This document shows, in pieces, positions 976 to 59,798 of a stretch of DNA of 64,000 bases. The position numbers and the translations under genes were made by a program. Origin of the DNA: a virus. The DNA lies in IMG/VR virus record IMGVR_UViG_3300037475_000032, positions 1 through 64,000 of that record. One strand, given 5' to 3'. The notes under the pieces were generated by a model. That model did not search any database. It saw only the letters and a program-made list of their open reading frames with translations, and had not been told where the DNA came from. Position 1 is the first letter of the stretch. The number at the start of each line of letters is the position of its first letter.

Positions 976-1187
976 TTGTGCAGCGCTCCTTCCGAAATCG
1001 TAACCGTGACGCTTTCGCTCCCTCCCGCCATTATAGCCAGTGAGATAAGCGAGAGCAATGCAAAGACTAGCAGAGCCACAACGACAAGCTCCGTGTCCAT
1101 ACGTCGGGGTTTAAACGCGATGAGCAGTAGGCCCAGTCCGAAGACCGAGCCTACCGTTGCGAACCATGCGATCAATCCCGTGCTCAT
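972..1187 (-). CDS. Small two-TM membrane protein
   Basis: Two hydrophobic stretches; coupled to both neighbours. Confidence 0.7.
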   Translation of the reverse strand: MSTGLIAWFATVGSVFGLGLLLIAFKPRRMDTELVVVALLVFALLSLISLAIMAGGSESVTVTISEGALHK

Positions 1188-1840
1188 CAGTTATCGAACC
1201 AGAATACCAGACGAGGGTTGCCTGCGCCGCCCTCCTCCAGTCCACGGAGAGCCCAGAGCCACGCCCTGCACTCAGCGGGCACCTCAAGGACGCCTTTGTC
1301 CTCCGGCCAGATCTCCTGACCCACCTCCACGTACGCCTTCAAGGCGGCTTCAAGCTCGTCCGCCGTAAGCCACGAGTAGGTGTGCCAGTCGGGGTGCGTG
1401 ACCTTCCAGCCGAAGCGCTTGCCTTCGGGCTCTGGGAGTCCGTCGATCAACTCGCCGTGGATCTTCGGATCGAAGTACACCAGCGGCCTACCCCACTCGG
1501 TTTTGACCCACTTGGACGACGCAAACTGTCCCGTCGTCCACGAACGGGCGTTGTCGTAGGTGCAGTTGCCGCCTTCCTCCCACCTCTCCTCACTGACCCA
1601 CATGAGGGCGTCGTGTTCTGACTCGTAGCCGAGTCGAGAGGGGAGTCCCTTCGGGTCGGGAGCATGACCCGCTGCATCGGAAACACGGACTGCTCCGTTC
1701 GTCAACAGCCCGAACAAGAGGTAGTTGCGTCCGCCGTCGAGCTTGGCGAAGCTACGGGTGTAGAACTTCTCTTCGTCCGGGAAGATGCCCTCACCACGCG
1801 ACTCGTCGTAGTCGATGTATGGATGGATGTCGCAACCCAT
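1187..1840 (-). CDS. Conserved phage hypothetical protein (MGCDIH...RLVFWFDN type)
   Basis: MGCDIH start, RNYLLFGLL, DWHTYSWLT and RLVFWFDN motifs. Confidence 0.75.
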   Translation of the reverse strand: MGCDIHPYIDYDESRGEGIFPDEEKFYTRSFAKLDGGRNYLLFGLLTNGAVRVSDAAGHAPDPKGLPSRLGYESEHDALMWVSEERWEEGGNCTYDNARSWTTGQFASSKWVKTEWGRPLVYFDPKIHGELIDGLPEPEGKRFGWKVTHPDWHTYSWLTADELEAALKAYVEVGQEIWPEDKGVLEVPAECRAWLWALRGLEEGGAGNPRLVFWFDN

Positions 1841-1842
1841 GG

Positions 1843-2439
1843 CTACTCATCCTCCTCATCGTCGTCATCTCGGGTCGCGTCGTGGACGATCTTGGTGAAG
1901 TCGCTGCTGCTCGGCAGGTCATCGAGCGGGAAGGAGGCTACCAGCGTGATCGGAGAGTACTCCCCTCTGCCGCCCTCGCGGCTGGCGAATCTGCCGATGA
2001 CATCCGGGCCATGGTTGAAGCCCTTGTAGACCTCGAAGACGTTGCTGTCCAGATCGACAACGTAGCCCCACTCGCAGAAAAGCGAGTCGCTTGCGAAGTC
2101 GTTGCCGTCGAGGATGACGCCGGACTCCAGCGTCAGGTTCAAGTCGCCCTGCGTGTTGCGCAGAAGCACGTACCACTCATCGAGCGATCCTGTGCTGACG
2201 CCTTGGTCGGCGAAACGACGTAGCGCCTCCTGCTGCTCTGGGGTCGGAGGCGTGTCCTCCTTGACTAGAACGAGGGCACTAGCGGCCTCGCGTACCCCCC
2301 CGATCCCGGCCGCAGCGATCTTCTCGCGGATGGCGTCCAGGACATCGACGCCGAGCCCATCCGGGTAGCTGTCGAAGTGGTTGTATGTCAGCTTCTCATC
2401 GCCATCGATGACAAAGCCCCATGTGCCGCGTGTTCCCAT
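1843..2439 (-). CDS. Conserved phage hypothetical protein (MGTRG...YNHFDSYP...CEWGYVVDLD type)
   Basis: Recurrent phage family motifs; SD AAGGAG upstream. Confidence 0.75.
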   Translation of the reverse strand: MGTRGTWGFVIDGDEKLTYNHFDSYPDGLGVDVLDAIREKIAAAGIGGVREAASALVLVKEDTPPTPEQQEALRRFADQGVSTGSLDEWYVLLRNTQGDLNLTLESGVILDGNDFASDSLFCEWGYVVDLDSNVFEVYKGFNHGPDVIGRFASREGGRGEYSPITLVASFPLDDLPSSSDFTKIVHDATRDDDDEEDE

Positions 2440-2479
2440 GATGGTCTCCTTTTACCTGCGTTTCGCCACTTGTAGCGGC

Positions 2480-6126: not shown

Positions 6127-6297
6127 CTAACAGGTGATAGCAGGTACGGTGAAGGTTGTGGTCTTTCCACATCCAGGACAGGTATGACGATACCTACCGG
6201 GACGGAGAACGATGTGCTGTGGCATGTTGTGTTGCGGGTTGAGACACGGATGGTCACACCTGCCCCACACCTCATCGTCATCAAGGCGTTCTAGCAT
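6127..6297 (-). CDS. 56-aa zinc-binding protein (not in ORF track)
   Basis: MLERLDDDEVWGRCDHPCLNPQHNMPQHIVLRPGRYRHTCPGCGKTTTF...; SD AAGGAG. Confidence 0.7.
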   Translation of the reverse strand: MLERLDDDEVWGRCDHPCLNPQHNMPQHIVLRPGRYRHTCPGCGKTTTFTVPAITC

Positions 6298-8493: not shown

Positions 8494-8512
8494 ACCTGAC
8501 GGCTAATAGGTG

Positions 8513-11500
8513 ATGAATGTCCAGTGCGAAAACTGTGATGCACACTTCCAGATCAGTCCAGGAGATATGTCGGGGGCGACTGCTTGCCCCGATTGCGGTG
8601 GGACTCGATTTCTTCGAAGTCAACCTTCTCCTACTCGATCAGACGGAACGCTTAGGGACATGGTTGACTCCGATTCTCAGAAGGATCAGGGCGGTAACCC
8701 GCTAGGCGAGGGAACCATCATGGGTAGTGACGGTGAGCGTCCTCCCGGAAAGCGTGACAACTACATGCACTCTAGGGTCGCAGACTTCGATTCCACCGTC
8801 AAGGAGATGGAGAAGTACCACAACGGAGTGAATGGTTATGGTCAGGGTGACTCAAATGTTGCCGATGAGTGGCATGAGGGTGACTTCCGCATCGGGGATC
8901 AGTGGTTCGATGGAGCAGATGGAGACCCAGTTCCCAGCGTCACGTCTGCACTTGTAGCCACATCGGGTGAAATGGAGGACATCCTTGGTCTGAGTCCTCC
9001 AACTCCGCCATCAGGCGGATTCATGGCCTGGAAGCCGGGTATGCACGGCCGAGGACTCATCATCAACGGCGAGCCACACACCTGGAACGCCTACGATCCA
9101 TCCACTGTAGAGCAGACTGGTACAGGCAATAGTCACAGTCAGTACGTGCAGAGTCTTGGCATCAACCCGTCGATGGTTGACTGGCACTCTGGGGTCGAGA
9201 TCAGGCCGACCGGAGAGGTCGAGAATCTTACTGGACGCGACCCTATGCCATATATCAAGGCGGACCCACGACTTAAACCACAAGAGGGCGGCGGTGACCT
9301 GTTCTCAATCCAGCCTACTATGCAACCGACTTCCCGAACACTCGACATGACCCCGTACACGCCTTGGGCTCACCAGGCGGATGTGCAGTTTGATATGGGG
9401 CCGGATGCCAACGTTCCGCAGCACAAAATCACCGTACAGCCGGGGCCACTGGGAATCCACGCAGGTCATACCAAGTATCTCCGTTTCCTCGATGCTCACG
9501 TAAACGGCATCCCGGCTCGTCAGAACGCCGGACAGATCATCTCGCGCTACGGGCTTCACGACAGCCCGGAGTTTGGTCAGCCCGTAGAGATCGGGGTACA
9601 CGACCCAGCCCACATCGCCCCCATTGTGGAGCAGATCCAGTCGAGCCAGGGTGCTATCGCTACTCCGCGCATGAAGGAACTGGGTCACAAGATCCAGTCG
9701 GGTCAGCTTCCGCCGCCCCCAGGCATCGACCCAGCTTCCATCGCCCCGGTTCAGCAGGCCCCGGCACCAGAGCAGCCAGAGGTGCCGGTCACAGCCCGCA
9801 CAGCCGGACCCGCTCTAGCTATTGGTGGTGAGGCGTTGCTAGGAGGCGGCGCTGCCGAGGCAGCCGGTGGAGCAGCCGCAGCCGGTGGAGAGGGAGCAGC
9901 GGGCGGAGGGATGCTTTCAGGTGGCCTTGGTGGTATGGCACCCTCACTCATGAAGGGTGCCCTCTTTAGGCAGGGCGAGAACATGATCGGTGGAGGAGGC
10001 GGAGGTGGATCGGCTCCTGCGGGAGGCGGTGGTGAAGGTGGTAGCTCAGGTCCGCCCGAACTGTCACAGTTGGCCGCCATTCTCGTGTCCGACTACGAGA
10101 CTCCTAGCTCCAACCCAGATGTTGGAACGAAGCACGACGATCCCGAGGACGTTGACCAGAAGGAGTTTAACGACAAGGAGTCCGACCCCAACCCGAAGAA
10201 TCCGAACACGGATGACTCGGGCGCATCGGGTGAGGATGAAGTCCGCGATCATGCAGGATTCGCCCCCGACAGCCCAGGCATCGAACGCCTTGGCCTACTT
10301 CTTCCGTTGGTTCTTCACTACTTCAACTCCGCTGAGTCGGGAGCCGAGGACCCGATGCTCAAGGGTCTTCATGAAGTTCTTGAAGCCGAGAATCCCGGCT
10401 ACCTCGACAACGTAACTCCTGAGGATGAACAAGAGGCAAGAAGGCTAGTCAAGGAACATGGAACACATCAGCATGACAAGCATCAAGGAAAGGTTGCGCT
10501 AGTGCCTCCTATGCAGAACGGATACGTCGATCCGGCCTTCCAGCAACAGCAGGCAGAACAACTGCAAGGTCAGATGCCAGTAGCACAAACGCCGCCAGGT
10601 GGCGCTCAGCAGCAGGGTCATTGCCCTAACTGTGGAGGAGTTTTGACAGCCGATGGAACCTGCCCGCAGTGCGGAGCCAAGCAGAATCCGATGGGAGGCA
10701 GCACGATCCCCGGACAGACTCCCTTGACAGGAGGTCCGTCGATGCCTGCTCAGATCAGTGCTCACTACGACATCCTTGCCGCCCTCGTGGACTCCGCTAA
10801 CCACCAGGGACCCGTTACGCCTGAGCAGATCGCAGCCGTCCAGCAGTTGCTCATCAAGCAGCACCGTGTACACGAGGTTCCGAACGTTCCCCTCAACCCA
10901 GGCGACTACGCCAAGGAGATGTCGGAAATCCAGCAGGTTCCGAACGTCGCTCCACAGGTTCCTCAGGGTGAACAAACCTCACCTCCGGCTCCCGCAATGG
11001 GTGGCGCACCAGGCGGTATGCCGATGCCGGGCATGGGAGGCGAAGCCGGTGGAGCACCGATGCAGCCGATGTCACATACTGCGGCTGATAGCGTCGCTGG
11101 ACGTTGCCCCGTGTGCAACTCCGCTACGACCGGGATGCTCATGGATGAAGGCGGCCATCAGCGTTGCCATTCGTGCGGGAACATCTGGAAGAACGAGGAT
11201 GCCTTTACCGACAAGTCGGTCAACAAGGAAACACGAGTCGCAGCGCCAGCCGAGGCTACGCCGGACCAGACCCAGGACCCCAATCCTACACAGGCCCCTG
11301 CCGCCGAGCAGCATCATCGCCACGACATCGAGAATGACCAGGATTCTTCACTGACCTGGAAGGACACAGAAGGCAATCCGCTCCAGGCAGGCCAGGAATA
11401 CGAGATGCACAACCCCGCTTATGAGATCCCGGATATCATCCGTGTAGATCGAGTCAAGCCGGATGGTCTCGACGTTCACATTCTCGGCACCTTCTCCAAC

Positions 11501-12469
11501 GATCCTAATGCCCTAGCTGCCAGCACATCCATCTCTCATGAGGAGGCTCAGCTACAGCACTTCACCTTCGCTCCTGTGGCTGAAAACGCCGACCAGAGAG
11601 GTGAAGTACCTCCGGGCTCGCAGACTCCGGGCGATCAGCAGATTCCACCGTCAGGTCAGACGACGGATGAAGTCGCCAACAGCACCCAGCAGCAGGTATC
11701 GAGTGTTCAGAAGCACGCCCCGATGTCTGAGCACGACCAGTACTTTGGCGGCGCTGGAGGTGCTGAAAAGGCCCTCAGTGCCATGAAGAAGGAGTACGGA
11801 CCCGATAAGGGTGAGAGCGTCTTCTACGCGCTCCTGAACAAGCGTAAGCAGTCGATGGTCACGGAGGCGGACATTCGCCAGGCCGAGATGCTTGCTGTAC
11901 AGGCTCAGAGCAGTGGCAACATCGTCCAGAGCTTGAACGAAATCCCCGAGCCGGAAACCGACGACACCTGCCCCAAGTGTGGGAACCTTCGCATCGAGTC
12001 CTCGATGTCGAGCCCGACGACGATCATGCACGACTGCTTCCGTTGCGGTCATGTCTGGGAGTCGAGGGACGAGATGCCGGACTACGGTGGCGCAGGCGAG
12101 GCTCGCTCATGGGTGATGGAGAGCAACGGACCAGGCGGGGATGACTTCTTCGCTGAGATGGATCGTGCTCGTGCCATGGCTGCATCCGGCCAGATGGGCT
12201 CCCGCAACCTCTCCGACATCGCTGCCAAGGATACCCGTATGCAGCAGATCGGCGAGTACTTGTCCAGCCAGGCCAGCGAGCGCCAGGAAAGGATCGCGGG
12301 TAAGCACTTCACTCCATCCGAACAGCGTGCCCTCATTGATGAGGACGGACATGCTCGCAACAGTGACATGCTCCAGCTACAAGGCACTCACTACCGAACA
12401 CGCTACGACTTCACAGGTAAGGCGAACGGATCGAATGTCCCCGAGGGACATTTGGTCATGGGCGTTTAA
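8513..12469 (+). CDS. 1,318-aa head-region multidomain protein with four Zn ribbons (candidate internal head polyprotein)
   Basis: CENC/CPDC, CPNC/CPQC, CPVC/CHSC, CPKC/CFRC pairs; P/Q/G-rich linkers; C-terminal FTPSEQRALIDE..ARNSD.L.LQGTHY motif; lies upstream of the protease. Confidence 0.75.
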   Translation: MNVQCENCDAHFQISPGDMSGATACPDCGGTRFLRSQPSPTRSDGTLRDMVDSDSQKDQGGNPLGEGTIMGSDGERPPGKRDNYMHSRVADFDSTVKEMEKYHNGVNGYGQGDSNVADEWHEGDFRIGDQWFDGADGDPVPSVTSALVATSGEMEDILGLSPPTPPSGGFMAWKPGMHGRGLIINGEPHTWNAYDPSTVEQTGTGNSHSQYVQSLGINPSMVDWHSGVEIRPTGEVENLTGRDPMPYIKADPRLKPQEGGGDLFSIQPTMQPTSRTLDMTPYTPWAHQADVQFDMGPDANVPQHKITVQPGPLGIHAGHTKYLRFLDAHVNGIPARQNAGQIISRYGLHDSPEFGQPVEIGVHDPAHIAPIVEQIQSSQGAIATPRMKELGHKIQSGQLPPPPGIDPASIAPVQQAPAPEQPEVPVTARTAGPALAIGGEALLGGGAAEAAGGAAAAGGEGAAGGGMLSGGLGGMAPSLMKGALFRQGENMIGGGGGGGSAPAGGGGEGGSSGPPELSQLAAILVSDYETPSSNPDVGTKHDDPEDVDQKEFNDKESDPNPKNPNTDDSGASGEDEVRDHAGFAPDSPGIERLGLLLPLVLHYFNSAESGAEDPMLKGLHEVLEAENPGYLDNVTPEDEQEARRLVKEHGTHQHDKHQGKVALVPPMQNGYVDPAFQQQQAEQLQGQMPVAQTPPGGAQQQGHCPNCGGVLTADGTCPQCGAKQNPMGGSTIPGQTPLTGGPSMPAQISAHYDILAALVDSANHQGPVTPEQIAAVQQLLIKQHRVHEVPNVPLNPGDYAKEMSEIQQVPNVAPQVPQGEQTSPPAPAMGGAPGGMPMPGMGGEAGGAPMQPMSHTAADSVAGRCPVCNSATTGMLMDEGGHQRCHSCGNIWKNEDAFTDKSVNKETRVAAPAEATPDQTQDPNPTQAPAAEQHHRHDIENDQDSSLTWKDTEGNPLQAGQEYEMHNPAYEIPDIIRVDRVKPDGLDVHILGTFSNDPNALAASTSISHEEAQLQHFTFAPVAENADQRGEVPPGSQTPGDQQIPPSGQTTDEVANSTQQQVSSVQKHAPMSEHDQYFGGAGGAEKALSAMKKEYGPDKGESVFYALLNKRKQSMVTEADIRQAEMLAVQAQSSGNIVQSLNEIPEPETDDTCPKCGNLRIESSMSSPTTIMHDCFRCGHVWESRDEMPDYGGAGEARSWVMESNGPGGDDFFAEMDRARAMAASGQMGSRNLSDIAAKDTRMQQIGEYLSSQASERQERIAGKHFTPSEQRALIDEDGHARNSDMLQLQGTHYRTRYDFTGKANGSNVPEGHLVMGV

Positions 12470-12487
12470 ACGACAGGAAGGAAAGTC

Positions 12488-18208: not shown

Positions 18209-18619
18209 TTACACAGGTTCCCCTTGGACATCATCTTGGAGGTAGATGGCGGGCGGCACATACTGGGGTTTAAACGGGTCAGAGAAGTTCACGTAGCGGT
18301 AGCCCCTGAATCCCTTCATAGGGCGTTCAACGCCCCACTCGGCCATCCAGTAGGGGTTACGCACCACATAGACTCCAGGGCGCATTAGCGCGCCGCTCAC
18401 GGGGTCTGTGACATCCTCCCTGTACTCGACGCCCAATACCTCGTTCCATCCCCTTACAACGCCGTCGTGGACCATGTAGCAGCGATCTCCGACGTTGAGA
18501 TCTTTTGGTCGGCTCGGCACACGGTAGTTGATGACCAGCCCGTTGTCGGCGGCCTTCTCCAACTCGTCCAGATAGGACTCAAGCGGCCTTGACTTGGGCC
18601 ACGTAATGGCTATGTCCAT
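18209..18619 (-). CDS. PUA/ASCH/EVE-like domain protein
   Basis: VGDRCYMVHDGVVRG and MKGFRGYRY motifs; start trimmed to MDIAITW. Confidence 0.55.
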   Translation of the reverse strand: MDIAITWPKSRPLESYLDELEKAADNGLVINYRVPSRPKDLNVGDRCYMVHDGVVRGWNEVLGVEYREDVTDPVSGALMRPGVYVVRNPYWMAEWGVERPMKGFRGYRYVNFSDPFKPQYVPPAIYLQDDVQGEPV

Positions 18620-18797
18620 CTTGGTCCACTCCTGACCCGCCGCAAGTCTCGCAGCATTGGTACATCGAGAATAGCTGATTGCCTGTGCCGTTGCACGTTT
18701 CGCACGCCTTGAGCCCTTCGGAGAACACACGACAAGCGACGCGCATGTCTTCGATGTTCGCTAGCTCCGGGATAGGAAGATCGTCTCGATGAATCAT
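18579..18797 (-). CDS. Small protein with two CxxCxGxG motifs
   Basis: CETCNGTG and CETCGGSG. Confidence 0.6.
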   Translation of the reverse strand: MIHRDDLPIPELANIEDMRVACRVFSEGLKACETCNGTGNQLFSMYQCCETCGGSGVDQDGHSHYVAQVKAA

Positions 18798-22854: not shown

Positions 22855-23457
22855 ATGGCAGTAGATTGGGAGCAGTTCCAGAAGGACGCAGAGGCAGCAG
22901 CAGAGAGGGCAAAGGCTGAGGTAGCGGCTAAGATCCAGGAGATCGAGGACGTGTACAAGGCCAAGTTCGCAGAGGCGCAGAGCGCCGCCCTATCGGAGCG
23001 ACCGGATGACGTTGGTCCGGGCGAGACGAAGGAGCAGCTACAGGCTCGCATCGCACAGGTGCCGGGTAGCTTCTCTGACAACGCCGAGAGCGCCGTACAG
23101 GTTGTTACCGCTCCGCAGGTTCAGGCAGCAGTCGCAGCGCAGCAGGGAGTCGCCGCACCAGTGGCAGCCCCGCCCGCCGCAACGCCGCCAGGAGCTTCGG
23201 AGGCTCAGTCAACCGTAATCACACCAGCCCCCGTGTCGGATCAGCCGGAGCCACAGCCCGATCAGCCGACACCGGAGCCCACGGTGGAGCCCGAGCAGAC
23301 CCCTGAGCCAGAGGCACAGGCACCTGTCGAGGAGCCTGCCGCAGAGCCGGTTGTCGAGCCAGTCGCAGAGGTAGCCCCGGAGGTAACTCCTGAGGCACCT
23401 GCCGAGGCAGAGGCTCCAGCGGAGACACCTGCACCGGAGGCAACGCCAGCAGCCTAA
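22855..23457 (+). CDS. Acidic Pro/Glu/Ala-repeat protein
   Basis: SD GGGAG; helical N-terminus and EP/AP low-complexity tail. Confidence 0.7.
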   Translation: MAVDWEQFQKDAEAAAERAKAEVAAKIQEIEDVYKAKFAEAQSAALSERPDDVGPGETKEQLQARIAQVPGSFSDNAESAVQVVTAPQVQAAVAAQQGVAAPVAAPPAATPPGASEAQSTVITPAPVSDQPEPQPDQPTPEPTVEPEQTPEPEAQAPVEEPAAEPVVEPVAEVAPEVTPEAPAEAEAPAETPAPEATPAA

Positions 23458-23873
23458 ACTACGGCTACAGGCGGAGCACTTGGGAGGGCACCTACGGGTG
23501 CCCTTTCTTGTAGTACTTCCGGGTTCGCTCCCTCACCAGGCGTATAGCTACGGTTTGGGATGATCCAGGACTCGGCCCCGTTGGGTCCTGACTTGACGGC
23601 AGTCGCAGCTTGATGATTGGCGATGTCACCTACATGAGCCGCTAGCTGCTTCACATACGAGTCGGTTTCAGGTGTATCGTCAGCGATGGTGACGACATGA
23701 TGCACTGGCCCGTTTAAACCCTGATGCGGACCCTCTACCCATCCTTCGTGAAAGAGATTGGGGTGAGTGGATCTCAGCCAGCGATGCGATGCTTGCGGCA
23801 GGCGCTCATGTAGGGGTTGTCCCAACTCGTCCGTCGTGGGGATGGGAATACGGTAGAGAGCCTTCTGTGCCAT
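23454..23873 (-). CDS. Hypothetical protein with late-type upstream motif
   Basis: CCTAATAGGTG directly before ATG. Confidence 0.65.
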   Translation of the reverse strand: MAQKALYRIPIPTTDELGQPLHERLPQASHRWLRSTHPNLFHEGWVEGPHQGLNGPVHHVVTIADDTPETDSYVKQLAAHVGDIANHQAATAVKSGPNGAESWIIPNRSYTPGEGANPEVLQERAPVGALPSAPPVAVV

Positions 23874-23889
23874 CACCTATTAGGCGACG

Positions 23890-29578: not shown

Positions 29579-30303
29579 TGCCAAGCGCTCTCACCACACC
29601 CATCTACAACAACGTCATCAGGTATCTGGGAGATGCCGGAGTGCCGCAGGAGATCTTGCGCCGACGTAGGCTCTCGCTCCAGACTTTCCGCCGCATGGGG
29701 ACCCCCGTGTTGCTCAAGCGCATGTTCACCATCGATGACGTATCGGCCGGTGACGCCCAGTTGAGCACCAACTACGACACCATCTACGGGCAGTCAACCC
29801 ACGATGATCCGTTCTCCTACGGGATCGGCTACGTCTCGACTGAAACCCAGGAAGGCGAGTGGATCAACACTGAGGGTGAGCTTGTCATCGCCGACACACC
29901 CGAATCGGGATGGACCCCAGCCCCCAAGTACCGTGGCTATGGTCCAGGCTACTTGACATACGCGATCCTCCCGGACGCCCCGGAAGACGTGTTCCGATTC
30001 TCCCCGGAGGGAGGCTTGCTCCACACGCAGGTCTCGCGCACGCAGCTTCCTTGGTGGCCCCAGGTCGGAGACAATGACCTGCTCATCGTGTGCGAAATCA
30101 ACGCCCAGGAGCAGATCATCGCCACGAAGGAGCGCTACCAGCTAAAGCAGGTCACTCCCACCACCATGAGGGGCCTTGACCGCTTTGGACGCCGAGAGTT
30201 CAACGCCGACGCAGCCGGTAACCGCTTCTGGGTCGGCCAGCAGTGCGAAGTCACGAAGGTTCCCGAGACGGACCCGATCTACCAGGTGGAGACCGACCGC
30301 TAA
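29578..30303 (+). CDS. Neck/head-closure protein
   Basis: Position between adaptor and tail completion gene; TAATG coupling. Confidence 0.6.
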   Translation: MPSALTTPIYNNVIRYLGDAGVPQEILRRRRLSLQTFRRMGTPVLLKRMFTIDDVSAGDAQLSTNYDTIYGQSTHDDPFSYGIGYVSTETQEGEWINTEGELVIADTPESGWTPAPKYRGYGPGYLTYAILPDAPEDVFRFSPEGGLLHTQVSRTQLPWWPQVGDNDLLIVCEINAQEQIIATKERYQLKQVTPTTMRGLDRFGRREFNADAAGNRFWVGQQCEVTKVPETDPIYQVETDR

Positions 30304-31325
30304 TGCCTCCTTCCCAGACCAACCAAATCACTGAGATCACGGGCAACACAACGGTCGCTCCCCGCTACGTTCGCCAGTCAACTCTCCAGTACAAGACCTT
30401 CATCAAGCGTGCCGTGGTGGAGTCGCTACAGAACGCCTTCAAGAATCACCCAGACCCGGAAATCGCCAAGACGAGAATCGGGATCGAGTACAAGACCGAC
30501 CGCGCCGACTTCCCAGCCATCATCATCAAGTTCTACGAGCGCAGCATCGACAACATCGGTGTCGGACACGTCGAGTGGGGACCCTCTCCGGCCGATCCGA
30601 ACTACCCGAACGGTCCCTTCACGCTCTTTGTCAAGTACTACCACCGCCTGTACAAGGGCGATCTGGAGTTCGAGGTGCTTGCGATGTCCTCTGTGGATCG
30701 AGACAAGGTGATCGACGCCCTCGTGGAGATCCTTGCGATGGCCGACGTGACAGAAGGGGGTTTAAACCTCCTGGAGCGCCTGTACGAAGACATCGGACAC
30801 ACGCCGTTCGGAGAATCACACTTCATCGCCTTCAACACCGATCTGATTAGCGGATACGGAGAGGGCAAGGAAATCGCTCCTTGGATACCCGAGGACACCC
30901 TTGTCTACACGTCTTCCTACCGACTCCCCATCATCGGCGAGTTCTACTCACTCACCCCGAAGTCGGCCTCTGAGCTTGGAATGATCCAGCAGGTCGATGT
31001 CTACCCATGGGACGACCGCGATCCGCTCGACACCCCACCGGAAGACTTCCCGGATGGAGAAATCCCTGCCGAAGACTACATCAAGTTCAAAGGACGCCCG
31101 TTCATCGAAGCCACAGGCACGGTCACGAAGGAAAGCGACCTGATAACAGGCATGTCTTCTGTGACCGGAATGGCGATTGGCAACAAGGTCACGGCAAACG
31201 GCGTTTTGGCCCATACGACCATCGTTGCAATCCCCTCATCCACGGAACTTAGGATCTCGGAGCCAGCAGTAGATACAGCAGCCGACACGACCGTCAGAGT
31301 GACCGATATTCAGAAGAAGCTCTAG
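30303..31325 (+). CDS. Tail completion/terminator protein with extra C-terminal domain
   Basis: FPAIIIKFYE..I...GVGH, LEFEVLAMSS.DRD; directly upstream of the sheath. Confidence 0.65.
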   Translation: MPPSQTNQITEITGNTTVAPRYVRQSTLQYKTFIKRAVVESLQNAFKNHPDPEIAKTRIGIEYKTDRADFPAIIIKFYERSIDNIGVGHVEWGPSPADPNYPNGPFTLFVKYYHRLYKGDLEFEVLAMSSVDRDKVIDALVEILAMADVTEGGLNLLERLYEDIGHTPFGESHFIAFNTDLISGYGEGKEIAPWIPEDTLVYTSSYRLPIIGEFYSLTPKSASELGMIQQVDVYPWDDRDPLDTPPEDFPDGEIPAEDYIKFKGRPFIEATGTVTKESDLITGMSSVTGMAIGNKVTANGVLAHTTIVAIPSSTELRISEPAVDTAADTTVRVTDIQKKL

Positions 31326-34818: not shown

Positions 34819-37107
34819 ATGCCGCCACGCGATAACACCGAACAGGACATGCCTGTAGCAAGCGCACAGGTCCCGCGTGCGACTTTGCAGGCCCTCAACC
34901 AGCTTACCCGTCAGATCGAGTCTCTGAACGATTATCTGGTGGCCCAGAGGTCCCCTACGGCCCAAGGACAGATCCAGGGCGAACTACAGCAGGTCGCATC
35001 TCGTCAGAGGGCCGCTCAGGTGGCTCCTACGATGCCTCCGACCTTCGCCGGAGGCACAACGACCACAGGTGGTGTCGTGCTACCCGGAGGGGTTGTGGGT
35101 CCGCCACCTCCTGCCCCGCCTCCGCCTCGTCCTTACCTGCCCGAACCAAGCGAGGTCTCGTTCCGCAACCGCCTCAAGGAAGGGAAGAAGCGAGTTGGGG
35201 AAGAAGGCCAAGGGAACGCTTTCAATCGCTTCTCAGAAGGCTTCCTGGAACCGAAAACACGCTCGGCTCGACCAACGGCCACACCGCCTCCACCTGTGCC
35301 TAACGAAGGCCCCGCAGGTAACAGCGAAACGATCCCGCCAAACGCACTGCCGCCGAACGCTCCAGGCGTCACACAGTCTGGAAGCACACGCACGCCCTCA
35401 GGTGTCATTCCGGGTATGTCGCAGCAGGAAGTCTCGAAGCTGCAACGAGAGGGATTCGAAATCCCTCAGTTCGGTGAGTGGCAGCTTGACACGAAGCTCA
35501 AGATGGCCCGCGATTGGATCGGTCAGTACGCCACCAACAAGGGTGCTTATGACCAGGAAGGTAACTGGCAATGGGGCGGCTCGATTGATGAACACGGTAA
35601 CTTCCAGGCCGGATCAGGTAAGTCCGCCGTGGGACAGACTGCCGCCACGGTCTCCGGTTACCTCAACTACGCCGCTTCACACGCTGCTCAGATCCACGCT
35701 ATCCGCCGCTCCTTCGATAGGGTGATGAACTTCGGCTCCGGGATGCAGCAGACCGGAGAACAGCTAGGTTATTCACCTCAGAGCGGTCTTGGTCCTTCGT
35801 CCATCTTCGGGTTCCGCAACCCGCTAGCGCCCTACACGTCAGAAGCCGGTCAGCAGGGAGCCGGTATCCGCTGGGATGCGGAGAAGATGACCCGACTCGG
35901 CACGGGAATCACCTCGGCCCAGGCCAAGGAAATCTACGGCTCGCTCGCGGGCATGGGATTCTCCAATCAGCAGCACGACGCCTTGGGTCTTACGACAGGA
36001 GGTGATTTGGAGAACATCGCCACTCAGCTTGTCGCCCCGATGGTCAAGAACACGGGAATGAGCCCAGAGGTTGCCTCTCAGTTTGCCAACGCCCTGCGTA
36101 ACGGTAACACCTCGATTCAGGAACTATCCAAGACCCTCACCAACTTGCCCGAAGCCGCCCACACGGCACGCGAGGGCATCAATGAATACACCGAATCCCT
36201 CCAGGGCTTTGCGGAACAAGCTGAGCAGATGGGAGCCACGAAGCAGCAGGGCTATCAGAGCGGCATGGCCTTTACTCAGTCTACGGGCCTCGATCCCCGC
36301 TTGCTCGGCCAGATGCAGCAGAGCCCATTCTTCCAGGGCTTGGCTCTTACCCAGATGGGTGTCCTCCCGTCCGGGATCGGGGCACTTCCAGGAGGTTCAC
36401 AGGTTGGGCTCACAATGCAGGCCATGAAGATGGCGATGAACGCTACACAGGGCCTCAACCAGAACAAGTACCAGACCATCGGGGGTAAGAGAGTCCTCGT
36501 CCAGTCAGGCTCGCAGGCGCAGCAGGATCAGGCCGCTCAGTTGCTCGGCATGAGCCCAGAAGAGTTCCAGCGTCTATACCGCAACCAGGGCCAGAACACG
36601 GCTTCCGCCAACGCTCTCACGCTCTTGCAGGCAGATACGGCTCAGGGATGGAAGAACGAGCTTGCAGGAGCCATGCAGAAGTCACACGGCAACCTCACGA
36701 AGGAACAACGTGAAAAGCTCCAGAAAGGTGGCGAAGGGATCACTGGTTGGAACCAGATCTCTCAGCAGCTACTCAACGCGGGCATCAGCAAGAAGGAAGT
36801 GGGGAGAATCGGCAGTGAGGGATTCGACAAGCGTGCCAGCGACGTGGAAAACCTCCTAGCGAAGCTCAACAAGCAGTCCATCTCCGAAGAAGGTCAGAAT
36901 AAGGTACAAGTCCAGTTCACTGGTGCCGCCGCCAAGTTCTTCCAGCAGGTGCCGATCTCACCCGCGAAGGCAGCCTCGAACGCAGGAGGTCAGTCGATCA
37001 CGAGTCTCGCTACGTCACCGCTTACACAGGCCCTCACTTCCATGAGTCCGCTCGGTCCTCTGACAACGGGGGCGTCGATAGCGTCTGACATAGCAGGCAT
37101 CCTCTAA
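34819..37107 (+). CDS. Tape measure protein
   Basis: Long A/G/Q-rich helical protein downstream of the frameshifting chaperone. Confidence 0.75.
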   Translation: MPPRDNTEQDMPVASAQVPRATLQALNQLTRQIESLNDYLVAQRSPTAQGQIQGELQQVASRQRAAQVAPTMPPTFAGGTTTTGGVVLPGGVVGPPPPAPPPPRPYLPEPSEVSFRNRLKEGKKRVGEEGQGNAFNRFSEGFLEPKTRSARPTATPPPPVPNEGPAGNSETIPPNALPPNAPGVTQSGSTRTPSGVIPGMSQQEVSKLQREGFEIPQFGEWQLDTKLKMARDWIGQYATNKGAYDQEGNWQWGGSIDEHGNFQAGSGKSAVGQTAATVSGYLNYAASHAAQIHAIRRSFDRVMNFGSGMQQTGEQLGYSPQSGLGPSSIFGFRNPLAPYTSEAGQQGAGIRWDAEKMTRLGTGITSAQAKEIYGSLAGMGFSNQQHDALGLTTGGDLENIATQLVAPMVKNTGMSPEVASQFANALRNGNTSIQELSKTLTNLPEAAHTAREGINEYTESLQGFAEQAEQMGATKQQGYQSGMAFTQSTGLDPRLLGQMQQSPFFQGLALTQMGVLPSGIGALPGGSQVGLTMQAMKMAMNATQGLNQNKYQTIGGKRVLVQSGSQAQQDQAAQLLGMSPEEFQRLYRNQGQNTASANALTLLQADTAQGWKNELAGAMQKSHGNLTKEQREKLQKGGEGITGWNQISQQLLNAGISKKEVGRIGSEGFDKRASDVENLLAKLNKQSISEEGQNKVQVQFTGAAAKFFQQVPISPAKAASNAGGQSITSLATSPLTQALTSMSPLGPLTTGASIASDIAGIL

Positions 37108-37889
37108 TGACGGTTGCCAACCCTACTAACAACCGCTGCAACCTTCTCTTCTCGCATCCACAGGTGGGATCTATCACCGTGGACACAGGAGCAGACGAAA
37201 TCGGTTGGGCCTACAACCTGAATACCGCCAACTTCCCTACGTTCGGAGGCGAGGTGGTTCAGATCCTCAGCGTGTACATTGACGACCTGCTCATCAAGGG
37301 CACCATCCGCACGTACACGGACATGGAGGAAATCTACAACTTCTTCGCCTCCTACATGCTCATCGCTACGCAGGGAAGCAAGGGAGTGGGGTCCTATGAC
37401 CAGACGCCCATGACGATGACCTACTCGCCGCGTCAGTGGACCTTCTCCATCCAGCCGATTAGCACGCCGGGATTCACCTACGACCGCGAAACCGTCGCCC
37501 CGCAGTGGCAGCTACAGGCCCACATCGTAGACAATACACCCGATGTAGAAGCGCTCAAGGACATGGTTGTCACACAGGTACTTCACGGAGAGGACAACCA
37601 GAACTTCGCGCTCTCCGGCATCATCTCTCCCGATTCCGGGGACCCAGCCAACAATCCCTTCTCCGCACCCGGAACCACGCAGGGCAACACGTTTAAACCC
37701 CTTACGGAAGCCCAGACCCAGGAAGACATCGGCAAGTACGCCGACTACTACAACTCCCTTATCCCATCTTACATGAAGGGCGATTACTCGTCGGTCTTCT
37801 CCGAAATCGGCTCCAAGCCCGCCTTCGGCACCACCTCCGCCCCCACAAAGGGCGAACAGTCAATCACCGGCGCTACTCAGAACAAATAG
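37107..37889 (+). CDS. Baseplate/tube-initiator-like minor tail protein
   Basis: WAYNLNTANFPTFGGEVVQILSVYIDDL.I.G; follows the TMP. Confidence 0.65.
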   Translation: MTVANPTNNRCNLLFSHPQVGSITVDTGADEIGWAYNLNTANFPTFGGEVVQILSVYIDDLLIKGTIRTYTDMEEIYNFFASYMLIATQGSKGVGSYDQTPMTMTYSPRQWTFSIQPISTPGFTYDRETVAPQWQLQAHIVDNTPDVEALKDMVVTQVLHGEDNQNFALSGIISPDSGDPANNPFSAPGTTQGNTFKPLTEAQTQEDIGKYADYYNSLIPSYMKGDYSSVFSEIGSKPAFGTTSAPTKGEQSITGATQNK

Positions 37890-53793: not shown

Positions 53794-55761
53794 CTATGTT
53801 GCGCCAAGCAGGATGTACAGCAAATCTTCACGGGTCAACTTGGCGGACATCGACTCCTCGAAAGCGGCTCCGTCATAGAGGGCCTTGTGGTAGCCGTGCT
53901 TGGTGGCGATGATGTCCTGCTTGCGTTCCTCAATCGAGTCCGCCATGAGCAAGTCGTACCAGTAGTTGAACGGGAGGATAGAGTCGGCCCTGACGTTACG
54001 CATCCTCTGACGCTTGCGGACCCACGTCCACGGCAGGTTGTAGTTGACACCTACGGCGGCCTCTGGAAGGTCAATGGAGTCGGCTCCACGATCACTGGAG
54101 AGGAAGACTCGGATGCTTGGATCTTCACGGAATCGGTCCTTGGCGGCATCGGCCTGTTTCTGCGAGCCCTCGTACGTGACATAGCTAACGCCCCATTCAT
54201 CGAGCGCCGTGGTGAGCGGCTTCATCCCGTAGCTGGCCCAGGTCATGAAGATCAGAACCTTCTCATCCGGGTGCTTCTCCAAGATGATCTCCCTCAGGGT
54301 CTCCAACTTCGTGTGTCCCTTGTCCGTGGGTGCCTTCGGAAGGGCCTCCAGGAGCGTCATAGCGACCTCTGAGCCCTTTGGACCCGTCAGGGCAGGCAAC
54401 CCCTCCATATCGTCCTCGAATTCGCTTAGGAGCAGTTCGAAGGCATTACGATTCTTGGCCGACTCCACGATCATGGATGGCGCATCGCAGACCATCTGCA
54501 TGACCTGGATGAGTGAGAGAACGCACGAGTCATCGAAGTCGGCCTCGATCATCTCCTTGGCCTTCCCCGTGAGTACGTCATAGACGCGCCTCTGCGTCGG
54601 ATGCCAGTCGATGAGCAGCGGGTCCTCAATCACCTTGGGGAAGTACTTGGCAACCTCCGGGTCATCTCGGCTCACGCGATGGGTCATGTGTTCTAGGCGT
54701 GGCTCCAGCTTGTCGAGGTTGATCCACTTCTCGGGCTTATGGGAGAACGGATTCTTGTAGCCCACGTACTCCCCCTCGAACTCCTCGACACGACCCAGGA
54801 GTGGCGGATTCATCATGCGGATGCAGTTGAACTGCCCTTCGGGCGAATTCTCAATGGGAGTAGCCGATAGCTCGAACTGTCGCATCCAGGCAGCACGCGA
54901 CAGCGCACCCTCAAGACCTTCCTCCTTCGAGGTAAAGCGACTCCATAGGCACTTCTTGACGGCCTTGTAGAGGATCGTGTTGCGGTTGCTCAGACGAGTT
55001 GGCATCTCGTCCCAGAAGAACAACACATCGCGGTCCTCAAGCACCACGGCGAAGAACTCGTGATCCTCACGGTACTTCTCGTAGTTGGTGATCGCTACGA
55101 CTTTCTCACCTGCCATGAGGCGGTCCTGGATTTCCTCATAGATCTTCCAGCGACGCTTAGGCGGCCCATCGATGATGACCGACTCCACATCCGCTAGGCG
55201 CATGAGCTTCTTCTGCATGTCACGCTTGTTGTTCGACTTGACGACAACGAACGCGAGATCAAATGGGTGACCATGCTCCATATGCCACAGGATGGCGCTG
55301 GCGATGAAGGCGGTCTTACCTGTGCCGGTATCCCACACCACGCATCCGGCGTTTAAACGCTCGTCTCGGATGAGCTTGTTGAATCCGGTAATCTGCCACG
55401 GAAGCATCCCGTTCTGCGTACCCTCAAGGGTAGAGTTGAGGGAGAACGGTGGAAGATCGTGCAGATGGTCGTAGGCGTGCAGGATGTCTTCGGGCGGATC
55501 GGTGAAGACCACCTGATACCCCGACTCCTGCGCATACGAGAGGAAGTTGTCTAGACCCGCAGGTGAGACCGTGCGGTAGTGACCGATGATCTCCTCGAAG
55601 TCAAAGAAGAAGTCCGGCTGTAGTGACTCCACGGACCATCGGCCTTGGAAGTCCTCGCTCGGCGAGAGAAAGAGCCACAGACCTTGGTCGTCACGAGACA
55701 GACCATCTAGTCTCTCGACTAGCGCCTCATCAAGAAGGTGATATCTCTGTCCATCGACCAT
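53794..55761 (-). CDS. SNF2-like superfamily 2 helicase
   Basis: WDTGTGKT, ITNYE, DEMP, LSATPIEN, KVLIF, RGADSIDL, NYNLPW. Confidence 0.9.
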   Translation of the reverse strand: MVDGQRYHLLDEALVERLDGLSRDDQGLWLFLSPSEDFQGRWSVESLQPDFFFDFEEIIGHYRTVSPAGLDNFLSYAQESGYQVVFTDPPEDILHAYDHLHDLPPFSLNSTLEGTQNGMLPWQITGFNKLIRDERLNAGCVVWDTGTGKTAFIASAILWHMEHGHPFDLAFVVVKSNNKRDMQKKLMRLADVESVIIDGPPKRRWKIYEEIQDRLMAGEKVVAITNYEKYREDHEFFAVVLEDRDVLFFWDEMPTRLSNRNTILYKAVKKCLWSRFTSKEEGLEGALSRAAWMRQFELSATPIENSPEGQFNCIRMMNPPLLGRVEEFEGEYVGYKNPFSHKPEKWINLDKLEPRLEHMTHRVSRDDPEVAKYFPKVIEDPLLIDWHPTQRRVYDVLTGKAKEMIEADFDDSCVLSLIQVMQMVCDAPSMIVESAKNRNAFELLLSEFEDDMEGLPALTGPKGSEVAMTLLEALPKAPTDKGHTKLETLREIILEKHPDEKVLIFMTWASYGMKPLTTALDEWGVSYVTYEGSQKQADAAKDRFREDPSIRVFLSSDRGADSIDLPEAAVGVNYNLPWTWVRKRQRMRNVRADSILPFNYWYDLLMADSIEERKQDIIATKHGYHKALYDGAAFEESMSAKLTREDLLYILLGAT

Positions 55762-57391: not shown

Positions 57392-57465
57392 TCGTCTGTC
57401 CTTTCGTGCGTCACTTATGACGCCTTAACCCCGATTTGGGGCCATAAAGCGTCAAAACTGGTGCC

Positions 57466-58017
57466 TTAGCGGTAGAAGCTGGCCCCGTTCTTGACCCTCT
57501 GTCCCTTGGTGTTCACCTTGCGTCCATCCGGGTGCGTGCGGTTGTACATGCCGGTTGTGGGTCGGCCGAAGCGGTCGTTCGTGAACGCTGGATCGGGAGT
57601 CCCGGCTTCCACATAGATCTCACGACGCTGGCGATTGTAGAGGTGGCTCTGGAATAGGATCGGGTTAACCCCTCGGATGTCACGGCGGGGTCCCTCTCCC
57701 TTGTACCAGCGATGGCCCTTCTCACACCTTAGCTCCGGGAAGTCGAGGTAGAGTTGATTCTCTTCCTCATCCAGAAGCGGATTGCCGTCGTTGTCGAACT
57801 GAGCCACGGACTCAACATGCCCGGTCTCGTCCCCATAGGGAAGGCTGTCAGGATCGTTTTCCTTGCACTCACGGCATAGCTCTCGATTGGCGTCTGACCT
57901 CAAAAGCTGATCGGCAAACTCCTCCAACTCAAGCGCAGTGTATTTCTGGCCTGGGACGAACTCGGGGGCTTCGTCCTCGAATCCCTCATCGGGAATGTCC
58001 TCATCCTCAAGACTCAT
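57466..58017 (-). CDS. Zn-binding hypothetical protein
   Basis: CREC...CEKGHRW. Confidence 0.65.
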   Translation of the reverse strand: MSLEDEDIPDEGFEDEAPEFVPGQKYTALELEEFADQLLRSDANRELCRECKENDPDSLPYGDETGHVESVAQFDNDGNPLLDEEENQLYLDFPELRCEKGHRWYKGEGPRRDIRGVNPILFQSHLYNRQRREIYVEAGTPDPAFTNDRFGRPTTGMYNRTHPDGRKVNTKGQRVKNGASFYR

Positions 58018-58423
58018 CTTCTACCTCGGCGAAGTACCTCTTTGCAAGCTGGATGCAACCAGCCTCGACGTACTGACCAACACTCACGGTGGTAATCCCC
58101 ATGATCTTGGCTACGTCCTTCTGCTTCATGTCCAGGATCACATTGTAGAAAATGGCCTCGCGCTTACGCGGCGCTAGCTCTTTCAGTCCAGTGTGCAAAT
58201 CCCAGAACGAGATTGCGATTGTCTGCTTTGTGCGTTCTCCCTTATCGTTCTCGACCCAGTAGCTATGCTCTAGGACGTGCTTACGACCGTCTGCTCCTGC
58301 CTGCGATAGCCCATAACCACCAACAAGCTCGCGGAACTCCGTGTAGTGCCTAAGTACCTCTCGTAGTATGCGATGTGGAGGGACGATCCCTGATTGTTTG
58401 TTCTTCTTGACAGCGGTTGTCAT
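58007..58423 (-). CDS. sigma70 region-4-like HTH protein
   Basis: LAPRKREAI...MKQKDVAKIMGITTVSV; extended -10 TGcTATACT upstream of ATG 58423. Confidence 0.75.
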   Translation of the reverse strand: MTTAVKKNKQSGIVPPHRILREVLRHYTEFRELVGGYGLSQAGADGRKHVLEHSYWVENDKGERTKQTIAISFWDLHTGLKELAPRKREAIFYNVILDMKQKDVAKIMGITTVSVGQYVEAGCIQLAKRYFAEVEDES

Positions 58424-58449
58424 ACCTGCTACGCAGTATAGCACTGCTT

Positions 58450-58962
58450 TCACTTGTTACTGTGACCCAAGTACCAAAGGCCGATTGCGAGGGCGTCGGT
58501 CTCCTCAAAGACCTTGACCCACTCAGATACCCTCGACTTGAGTTGAGGTAACAGCGAGATGACGCCGTTGCGAACTTGCTGCTTCGTGATCTTCTTGCCT
58601 CGTCCTCGAATGGCAATCTCGGATTGCACCGAACGAGCCATTACCTGTGAGACCGGGATGCCCCTCTGGATGGCTATGGCGTGCAGCGTCGTTGCCTGCA
58701 CATTCGCCAAGTAGCCCTGCTCCGGGATATTGAAGCCACGAGAGGGCACAACCTCAGTGACAACATGCTCCGGCCTCCACCAATCAAGAAGCTCCTGGCT
58801 TTCCTGAACCCAGAACCTAGCCAAATCTAGGCGGTACTCTTGAAACCCTACGGTGTCTCCTCGTGGGAAGTGAATCACGCCTGAGGCTAGGTACTTGGGT
58901 CCTGTCTCCAGAACCGCCCACCCCGCTCGCTTTGCTCCTGAGTCGATACTTAGCACCCTCAC
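58450..58962 (-). CDS. ruvC: RuvC-like Holliday junction resolvase
   Basis: MRVLSIDSG...GWAVL, VVTE, TKQQV, ETDALAIG. Confidence 0.85.
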   Translation of the reverse strand: MRVLSIDSGAKRAGWAVLETGPKYLASGVIHFPRGDTVGFQEYRLDLARFWVQESQELLDWWRPEHVVTEVVPSRGFNIPEQGYLANVQATTLHAIAIQRGIPVSQVMARSVQSEIAIRGRGKKITKQQVRNGVISLLPQLKSRVSEWVKVFEETDALAIGLWYLGHSNK

Positions 58963-58979
58963 ACCTATTACGACCCCGT

Positions 58980-59798
58980 TTAAACAGGCAAAGGAAAGTG
59001 TTCATCGTCATCCTTTGTGATCTCGATGTCATGGTCAAGGCACTCGGAGATGAATTCCCACTTGCCGTAGATGGCGTCGATGAGTGCCTGATCGCGTTCG
59101 TACTCGAACTCCTTGAAGTCATGCGGGGCGTCCTTGTTGATGGCGACGATAAGTCCATGCTCCAGATCGAAGAAGTCCATGTACATATTGATCTGGCACT
59201 TGTACTTGTCTGCCGCCCACGGAGGAACGTCCGGGAGCTTGTATTGCGCCGATGCCATGGTCTTGAAGTCCACGACACCTTCCCAGCCGCCCGGTAGCTT
59301 GCACGGGGCTATGTCACCTGATCCGGTAGCCCAGTGGTAGGGCTTGGGGAAGCGGAAGCCATCTCCTGAGCCGCCGAAGTAGTAGGTATTGGGGATTCCC
59401 CATTCCTTCTTGCCCCTACGCTCGATGTCGTTGGGTCCGGCGAACCCAAGCTCCACGGAGAGGTGTTGGAGTAGCTGATGCCAGTAGTGACCCACCATGA
59501 ACGCCTTGCGGGTTTCAGCTTTGATGGCTTCGGGCTTGGCGTCAACGTGATCCTCGAACTGGCTCCCCTGACTGTCCCTCACCTCCCACTCCTGCGTCAG
59601 CATCTTCGCCTCGGCGAACAATGCACTGACAGGGGGCATACAGTGACCGCTCGGGTGCCAACCTGAGTCGGCGATCTTCGGCTCGTACCTGAACTCCCAT
59701 GGAGCGTCGAAGGTCGTCAGGGCCTTATCCAGGAAGGGCACTAGCTTGTAGCGCTTCCCCAGGTTCTTCACGAGCTTGGACTTGTCTAGCTTCTGCAT
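58980..59798 (-). CDS. Cas4-like / PD-(D/E)xK exonuclease
   Basis: HPSGHC, GHYWH, GSGD, VVDFKT, QINMYM. Confidence 0.8.
   Translation of the reverse strand: MQKLDKSKLVKNLGKRYKLVPFLDKALTTFDAPWEFRYEPKIADSGWHPSGHCMPPVSALFAEAKMLTQEWEVRDSQGSQFEDHVDAKPEAIKAETRKAFMVGHYWHQLLQHLSVELGFAGPNDIERRGKKEWGIPNTYYFGGSGDGFRFPKPYHWATGSGDIAPCKLPGGWEGVVDFKTMASAQYKLPDVPPWAADKYKCQINMYMDFFDLEHGLIVAINKDAPHDFKEFEYERDQALIDAIYGKWEFISECLDHDIEITKDDDEHFPLPV

Follow-up and report, generated by a model that had tools for sequence, protein, structure and literature searches.

A 64,000-nucleotide stretch of DNA, the first 64 kb of a 160,765-bp soil phage record (IMG/VR record IMGVR_UViG_3300037475_000032), contains eight scattered copies of the eight-letter palindrome GTTTAAAC, and the whole genome contains 20. 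We refer to the 64-kb stretch as the window and to the whole genome as G000. This raises the question of what keeps such a word at so many places in a phage chromosome. We found that selection maintains GTTTAAAC on the phage chromosome as a DNA word acting in cis, and that the word co-occurs with a gene for a SprT-like protease in this and other phage lineages. We give an even chance to the proposal that the SprT-like protein docks at the scattered sites or uses them as operators, in the manner of stoperators. The record has identical 127 bp at both ends and is therefore probably a circular assembly. The genome (G+C content 57.6%) belongs to a myovirus and encodes sheath, baseplate, capsid and polymerase proteins; beyond the window it has a large tRNA array. 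A megablast search with 20 kb of this phage gave zero matches to sequenced phages.

Abundance and conservation of the word

The window was expected to hold 0.24 copies of GTTTAAAC by dinucleotide shuffling, and no shuffle attained the eight observed, which lie exactly where the original prediction had placed them (1109, 12464, 18268, 23712, 30760, 37691, 55351 and 58978). For the whole genome, Markov models of order 0 to 3 gave expectations of 0.1–1.2 copies. The codon-aware count that the original prediction had called for, made with 300 synonymous-codon shuffles within genes, gave an expectation of 0.44 and a maximum of 3 against the 20 copies observed (approximately 45-fold enrichment), and the enrichment stood. 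GTTTAAAC is the most over-represented 8-mer of the genome. The claim that every TTTAAA carries G...C flanks held for 8 of 8 copies in the window and 20 of 20 genome-wide; unflanked copies, which would tell against a selected octamer, numbered zero in the genome when 4.7 were expected (synonymous shuffles, p=0.007). The 24 one-mismatch variants of GTTTAAAC together occurred 10 times in this genome (9.8 expected), and 18 times (17.3 expected) in the relative G011, a 61-kb genome that was found via its capsid gene. The enrichment is confined to the perfect 8-mer. Outside it there was a weak C...G preference, with C at position -1 in 25 of 40 half-sites. The sites are spread genome-wide at a mean density of about one per 8 kb, and their spacing was not significantly even (coefficient of variation 0.68 vs 0.93 under the null, P=0.054).

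These counts bear on the explanation that the word arose by chance or from base composition, is spared by TTAA avoidance, or was introduced in assembly. TTAA and AATT are indeed 3- to 5-fold scarcer here than expected, and some longer contexts escape the depletion. However, this explanation is effectively refuted and keeps only a negligible probability: 20 copies were observed against 0.44, G011 is enriched in the word without any TTAA depletion, and an independent assembly is identical. A Logan contig from another sequencing run (L135, SRR12917118, 83.8 kb) is 100% identical to genome positions 6901–28007 (21.1 kb, three sites). The sites are therefore not an assembly artefact, and the match in a second run indicates that the same phage genotype was sampled twice.

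The genome also shows a loss of other palindromes. About 35 of the 64 six-base palindromes are wholly absent from the 160-kb genome, although 12–118 copies of each were expected (for example CGATCG, CTCGAG, GGATCC, GAGCTC, GACGTC, GTCGAC, AGGCCT and TGATCA). The remaining six-base palindromes are near expectation, so that the pattern is all-or-none, and the set of missing palindromes differs relative by relative. This loss is restriction-site avoidance on an extreme scale. By synonymous shuffles of the whole genome, TTAA (73 vs 211 expected) and AATT (40 vs 209) are depleted; the spared contexts are GAATTC (25 vs 33), which holds 25 of the 40 AATT copies, and GTTAAC (18 vs 21). The 168-kb relative G002 has one TTAA genome-wide and 197 AATT.

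Among 79 related viral contigs gathered by capsid homologues, ten large relatives had 0–5 copies of GTTTAAAC, which was not above the reversed-word control. Motif-poor relatives were found even at 88–92% identity of the major capsid protein: G001 (G+C 46.8%) has one copy and G002 (G+C 57.1%) has none. G011 has 13 copies, with GTTTAAAC as its top 8-mer, and three short contigs were likewise motif-positive. In a quick capsid tree the positives formed several basal branches of one clade, not one tight group. Capsid homologues in bacterial genomes revealed prophage-like relatives in three unrelated taxa of different phyla and were thus uninformative as to the host. The motif-free G001 (92% capsid identity) has an over-represented word of its own, the non-palindromic CGCAGCAGAC, whose 8-mers occur in 23–27 copies against approximately one expected.

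At about 69% DNA identity, the site positions of G000 were unmatched in G011, G001 and G002. Most positions differ at about 70% identity, an exception being a site in the promoter spacer described below. Strict positional conservation at about 70% identity was ruled out; G000 and G011 share neighbourhoods, not exact codons. By eye, the common neighbourhoods are those after the capsid gene, in the gene at 37107–37889, and upstream of the SprT gene. The closest relatives (Logan SRR33230155_26524 and JGI 3300077553 Ga0633706_0000064), which are 86–89% identical to G000, were compared in 10-kb steps over the genome outside positions 47–140 kb. All nine alignable sites were intact there (mean identity 88%), with zero extra sites, whereas 47% of all 8-mers and 51% of AT-rich 8-mers survived in the same alignments (P = 0.001–0.002). 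Purifying selection therefore holds the sites over 11–14% divergence. The expectation that the sites persist in related phages was thus borne out in the closest relatives but failed in G001 and G002, with their one and zero copies. This patchy presence led us to search for a linked gene.

A SprT-like gene and its product as candidate reader

We compared the gene content of two motif-rich genomes with that of two motif-free genomes. The only sizeable gene limited to the motif-rich pair was a 321-amino-acid open reading frame (ORF) at genome 149345–150310 on the minus strand. The SprT-like gene to which it belongs lies beyond the window and extends from 149345 to about 150385 (minus strand); an intact orthologue of 343 amino acids is present in contig L129 (10001–11032). 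Sites lie just upstream of the gene in both motif-rich genomes. Six motif-rich lineages have the SprT-like gene, and ten motif-free relatives (82–100% complete) have no homologue. Word and gene also occur together in G011, which had been chosen through its capsid gene. Conversely, five contigs found only through the protein were all enriched in the word. GTTTAAAC accounted for 3 of 3 TTTAAA copies in L129, 3 of 3 in L130, 6 of 7 in L131, 4 of 4 in L139 and 3 of 6 in L140. The other three in L140 are GTTTAAAT, at 6237, 13288 and 18849, all on stop codons; GTTTAAAT may represent a relaxed last base of the word in that lineage. Full-length homologues in the database lie on long contigs, and all those whose DNA was retrieved were motif-rich. 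Scans of viral contigs with the long-form protein, as a single sequence or a two-sequence alignment, gave too few loci for use.

For the short form of the protein, an alignment of 50 short (approximately 190-amino-acid) homologues was scanned against the viral collection. The 80 best loci (1.01 Mb, G+C 40–71%) contained 314 copies of GTTTAAAC against 8.8 expected, and 87 copies of the variant GTTTACAC and its complement against 14.2 expected, whereas ten composition-matched palindromes with AT cores gave 70 against 94. Control loci chosen by a capsid gene had 14 copies of GTTTAAAC (7.0 expected), and those chosen by a methyltransferase had one (1.7 expected). Among the 80 loci, 53 were individually significant for GTTTAAAC and 14 for GTTTACAC, and about 200 of the 314 sites lay outside the SprT-like gene itself, as compared with a total expectation below 9. 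Of five cultured phages that carry the gene, four contained one or both of the words: GTTTACAC occurs in 43 copies in Streptomyces phage Microdon, 17 in Arthrobacter phage Emotion (strands 15:2) and 17 in Microbacterium phage Caron, which also has two copies of GTTTAAAC, and E. coli phage ep3 has four copies of GTTTAAAC, one of them 20 nucleotides (nt) from the gene. The reversed-word control gave 0–2 copies in cultured phages. Because the asymmetric variant GTTTACAC exists, palindromy is not essential, and a monomeric or asymmetric reader is possible.

The methyltransferase control also bears on an explanation without a dedicated binding protein, in which a DNA methyltransferase or a bias of repair, in the phage or its host, preserves GTTTAAAC as an iterated palindrome. 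HIP1 (GCGATCGC) of cyanobacteria, whose function is unresolved, is likewise an 8-bp palindrome that is strongly enriched and conserved (PMC5861425, PMC4390886), as is the approximately 45-fold enriched word here. The one DNA methyltransferase found here is an orphan enzyme of the beta-class N6/N4 type, missing from G001 and G002 (405 amino acids with a long insert, genome 65436–66653, minus strand, between the polymerase gene and its neighbour), and the genome is under extreme restriction pressure. A C5-methyltransferase motif was not found, other methyltransferase classes having been checked by motif regular expressions only. However, a database of 5.8 billion proteins holds nothing more than 53% identical to the methyltransferase; among the matches listed, none lies on a contig sized like the two close relatives that have the word (118 and 121 kb), and one of these two ought to cover the region. 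The word is missing from loci with 40%-identical methyltransferases, its one-mismatch variants show no depletion, contrary to a repair bias, and the word tracks the protease gene over hosts with G+C contents of 42–71%. A HIP1-like origin is thus very improbable, and the methylation system that the original prediction had listed among its possibilities is weakened by the same findings on homologues, loci and one-mismatch variants.

The SprT-like gene has a site in its own promoter. The copy at genome 150564 lies within the 17-nt spacer of a TTGACA/TATACT promoter (genome 150582–150554, minus strand) that was the best match in 6.6 kb to a sigma-70-type consensus (11 of 12 positions). The layout TTGACA-N5-GTTTAAAC-N4-TATACT is shared by G000 and L129; a spacer site in the same register, with near-consensus boxes, is present in L130 (TACACT) and L131 (TTGAAC/TATCCT), and L139 has a shifted version of the arrangement. 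The statement that the sites are not in promoter positions thus holds within the window but not genome-wide. Only 7 nt separate the promoter from the ATG of a 57-amino-acid acidic ORF, which implies a leaderless mRNA; this ORF overlaps the start of the SprT-like gene. At the far end of the operon is a convergent-gene junction with another conserved site, in a hairpin loop. The reading that all sites are operators in promoters was ruled out, because the other 19 sites have no convincing promoter, save possibly one at 128202.

The sites in the promoter spacer and at the operon end would also fit a different, co-inherited sequence-specific regulator for which the SprT-like operon is one target or a neighbour. 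Cultured phages have annotated DNA-binding or helix-turn-helix (HTH) genes 1–2 kb from the SprT-like gene, L130 has an HTH_3 gene 9 kb away, and small variable ORFs adjoin the gene in every lineage. On the other hand, no other gene of the sampled neighbourhoods tracks the six positive lineages, in a comparison biased by the selection of most loci via the SprT gene itself; the HTH_3 match is absent from this genome; and the neighbours of the gene differ wholly between phage groups while the word is constant. We consider such a regulator unlikely, though it is the most serious of the alternatives.

The product of the SprT-like gene, a zinc-metalloprotease/zinc-ribbon protein, matched PHROG 6361 (8.5e-37). 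It gave no match to PF10263 at E 0.01, although several homologues of about 50% identity carry precomputed PF10263 matches, and GenBank labels homologues 'SprT-like protease' and, once, 'antirestriction protein'. The sequence contains HEMLH...GH and a CPxCGY...CPxC ribbon; H90, E91, H94 and H103 were invariant across 31 homologues, as were the HExxH...H and CxxC...CxxC patterns. The AlphaFold model had a mean pLDDT (predicted local distance difference test) of 82, and the best Foldseek matches of the N-terminal domain were Wss1 (5xbv; E 0.053, probability 0.95) and SPRTN (6mdw; E 0.056), both below the usual threshold. The protein of this lineage has as extras a domain of about 90 amino acids (beta-sheet plus helix) and an acidic tail. 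Assignments of this C-terminal domain to YkuJ, AP2, integrase arm-binding or WGR folds were rejected (Z 3.6–5.2, below a useful threshold), and its predicted homodimer scored 0.32 against a mark of 0.42.

A sequence-specific protein reader, as the original prediction had proposed, is the best explanation of sites that pass a codon-aware null and persist in relatives. Nothing pointed to its other suggestions of partitioning, packaging, nicking or mimicry of a host motif, and the three phage proteins that it had put forward as binders do not track the word, all having homologues in motif-free relatives. With respect to annotation, 58007–58453 (minus strand) encodes a Sigma70_r4 protein and its neighbour at 58450–58962 (minus strand) a RuvC-like protein; both are conserved in motif-free relatives. 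As the reader, we propose the SprT-like protein or a complex containing it, which would dock at the GTTTAAAC sites. Docking at its own promoter would lead to negative autoregulation, and the approximately 20 dispersed sites would serve as stoperator-like roadblocks or operators, or as a tether for a DNA-activated protease on phage DNA. We put at about even odds that the protein reads the word, and does so through its zinc-ribbon module.

Several findings weigh against the proposal that the SprT-like protein is the reader. The link between gene and word is one of co-occurrence only. Many of the 80 loci are mutually related and are therefore not 80 independent events, and about 13 of them have neither word; Bordetella phage CN1 has essentially none of either word, though the gene is present. 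Within the short-form SprT-like coding sequence, 76 sites lie at fixed places (Phe-Lys), with more on its stop codon, and the raw association is inflated accordingly. These in-gene sites are at offsets +47 to 62, +287 to 302 and +353 to 368 (loci L144–L223), where the word encodes the Phe-Lys of a conserved GK(A/L)FK(R/Q). Short-form loci have 2.4 sites/kb in the first kb versus 0.1–0.3/kb elsewhere, in an array within about 3 kb downstream of the gene start with a median spacing of 293 bp, half of the array sites being on stop codons of small genes. Given this local array there and the genome-wide spread here, the two are possibly not the same system. The fold matches are weak, with E 0.05 for the N-terminal domain and Z of at most 5.2 for the C-terminal domain. 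Finally, the SprT-like gene of this genome has a run of seven A where three relatives have six (genome 150228–150234, minus strand), which breaks the frame near codon 50. The frameshift could be an assembly error, transcriptional slippage or recent gene loss; the reader may thus be defective in this genome, or the run is an assembly error.

A bolder version of the docking proposal, which we hold to be doubtful, is that the word acts as a 'self' address label, the SprT-like zincin being active only when docked at GTTTA(A/C)AC of its own chromosome. The docked zincin would then cut proteins on phage DNA, the candidate targets being host silencers, restriction or defence nucleases, stalled polymerases and a repressor. 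If true, the SprT-like zincin would parallel SPRTN/Wss1 in a form addressed by sequence, and phages of Actinobacteria, Proteobacteria and uncultured hosts would share a widespread means of counter-defence or genome maintenance.

Placement of individual sites

Within the window, two sites lie on stop codons (12464 and 58978) and six in coding ORFs (1109, 18268, 23712, 30760, 37691 and 55351), in agreement with the placement first described. The word is used in all frames, as Phe-Lys (G-TTT-AAA-C), Leu-Asn (GT-TTA-AAC) or a stop (GTT-TAA). This use of several frames, together with the codon-aware null, supports selection on the DNA itself and not on a protein motif. The word as a -1 frameshift heptamer (U_UUA_AAC) was ruled out by the use of all frames, the intergenic copies and the requirement for a 5' G.

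The site at 1109–1116 lies in an ORF of about 72 amino acids for a membrane protein on the minus strand, where it encodes Phe-Lys; this ORF was called as a gene in one relative, and 20 of 20 bases at the site were the same in a relative of about 83% local identity. The site at 12464–12471 is on the TAA stop of a 1319-amino-acid gene (8510–12469, plus strand), 13 nt past a hairpin and 16 nt ahead of the next ATG, and is kept in relatives of 89–91% identity. The site at 18268–18275 is 261 nt past the stop of the major capsid gene, in a convergent ORF (18209–18730, minus strand; Phe-Lys). It is kept in relatives, and more distant motif-positive relatives have a site 69–519 nt past the capsid gene, adjoining its terminator in two of them. 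The site at 23712–23719, in the ORF at 23454–23876 (minus strand; Leu-Asn), is close to a point of gene convergence and is kept in a relative of 89% identity.

Two sites encode Leu-Asn where motif-free relatives have other residues. One is at 30760–30767 in the gene at 30243–31325 (plus strand), where motif-free relatives have Leu-Ala, Val-Ser or Ala-Ala; it is kept in a relative of 91–92% identity. The other is at 55351–55358 in a helicase-like gene (53794–55761, minus strand), where they have Leu-Gln or Ile-Gly. The site at 37691–37698 (Phe-Lys) is in the gene at 37107–37889 (plus strand) and is kept in a relative of 91% identity; in G011 this gene also contains a site, at another codon. In general, the amino acids at the sites differ from those of motif-free relatives, and the replaced residues vary freely among relatives. 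The genome has only 13 TTA codons, five of which are within GTTTAAAC sites. One copy lies in the variable arm of the phage tRNA-Ser(GGA) gene (genome 83320–83408), and the word is thus written even into a structural RNA gene. Selection on the word therefore overrides codon bias, changes amino acids and edits a tRNA variable arm, despite the palindrome-purged genome.

Genome-wide, nine of the 20 sites are at least partly non-coding, although non-coding DNA makes up 17% of the genome. Three of 20 overlap a called stop codon, five are within 30 nt of a 3' end (6.4% of random positions are), and several are next to terminator hairpins. In the SprT-linked loci, 149 of 314 sites overlap a stop codon, many of them stops of small genes. 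These positions could indicate an RNA or gene-boundary signal, with GUUUAAAC, which provides TAA on both strands, acting as gene-end punctuation, be it as the context of a stop, as a place of processing or as a signal for coupling in operons of small genes. However, a TAA stop is also the least costly means of accommodating the word where coding DNA is compact, roughly half of the sites are within genes in the two other frames, one is in an untranscribed promoter spacer and one in the tRNA variable arm, and an RNA signal has no need of palindromy. We regard an RNA signal as quite improbable.

The last site of the window, at 58978–58985, is on the TAA stop of the gene at 58980–59798 (minus strand), 6 nt upstream of a late-type motif (GTAATAGGTG) that abuts the start of the RuvC-like gene (58450–58962, minus strand). 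A RuvC-like resolvase gene beside a site would fit a reading in which the word is the target of a nuclease or nickase, and not a binding site for a regulator or protease; such a target could serve recombination, the restart of replication, or programmed nicking of the kind seen in T5 and Pseudomonas phage tf. The use of an exact 8-mer without tolerated variants also resembles a restriction enzyme, and GTTTAAAC is the PmeI/MssI site. Nevertheless, no nuclease gene was found that tracks the word, nicks at a palindromic site would result in double-strand breaks, and the fixed register in the promoter spacer of four lineages is unexpected for a cleavage site. A role as a nuclease target accordingly has little to recommend it, and docking of the SprT-like protein remains our preferred proposal.

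Relation to known systems

As far as sequence comparison can indicate, the kind of system would be one of dispersed cognate sites for a phage-encoded DNA reader. If this is true, the word and its reader would join Chi/RecBCD, KOPS/FtsK, parS/ParB, stoperator/repressor and HIP1 as a pair carried by phages of very different hosts, and they would offer an initial functional lead on the 'SprT-like protease' genes, which have been annotated in many hundreds of phage genomes. For these genes the literature offers annotation and a suggested role in lysogeny control, with no further role given; a survey of jumbo phages lists SprT-like peptidases as likely effectors against host proteins. Full-text literature searches gave no report of GTTTAAAC as a motif that occurs naturally in phages, nor any that ties a DNA word to phage SprT-like genes. 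The pairing of the word with SprT-like genes is widespread and apparently undescribed. What this genome adds is a dispersed case in a 160-kb myovirus, the conservation test, the fixed promoter-spacer site, the presence or absence of the gene over sixteen related genomes, and the long form of the protein.

With the PmeI/MssI target (GTTT^AAAC), the word shares the identical 8 bp and all-or-none recognition. A cognate endonuclease of the PmeI/MssI type was not identified. Unlike restriction targets, which are avoided in phage genomes, GTTTAAAC is 45-fold enriched in a genome from which about 35 palindromes were purged.

SPRTN, Wss1 and ArdC bind DNA, to our knowledge, by structure (single-stranded DNA, junctions) and not by sequence, and we found no cognate DNA word described for any of the three. 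The SprT-like protein resembles the DNA-dependent zincin proteases SPRTN and Wss1 (PDB 6mdw, 5xbv) and the plasmid anti-restriction protein ArdC in having an HExxH zincin core followed by a zinc-binding DNA-contact module. It differs from SPRTN/Wss1 in its additional domain of approximately 90 amino acids and its acidic tail.

The likeness to HIP1 consists in an 8-bp palindrome that is tens-fold above codon-aware nulls and conserved beyond the neutral rate. However, HIP1 is a feature of cellular genomes, occurs about once per kb, and has links to DmtA and DmtC, which are orphan methyltransferases. The word described here is found in phage genomes at one copy per 1–8 kb and tracks a protease gene, and the sole methyltransferase found in this genome is, going by the matches listed, apparently not shared by motif-positive relatives.

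The closest parallel is with the stoperators of Cluster A mycobacteriophages, such as those of L5 gp71 and Bxb1 gp69 (PMC9283540, PMC6550527). In both cases a short site occurs some 20–35 times per phage genome (here 20), is placed in small gaps between genes, over stop codons and within an early promoter, and varies in presence and sequence between related phages. The strand bias of GTTTACAC in Emotion (15:2) further recalls the orientation of stoperators. On the other hand, stoperators are asymmetric 13-mers oriented with transcription, whereas GTTTAAAC is a perfect 8-bp palindrome with about half of its copies inside genes. The gene that travels with it encodes a zincin protease with a zinc ribbon and not an HTH immunity repressor, and this association spans phages of many host phyla. 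There was no sign of lysogeny in this genome, where HTH_3 was not found and other HTH classes and integrase were not searched for. GTTTAAAC thus belongs to neither the stoperators nor HIP1.

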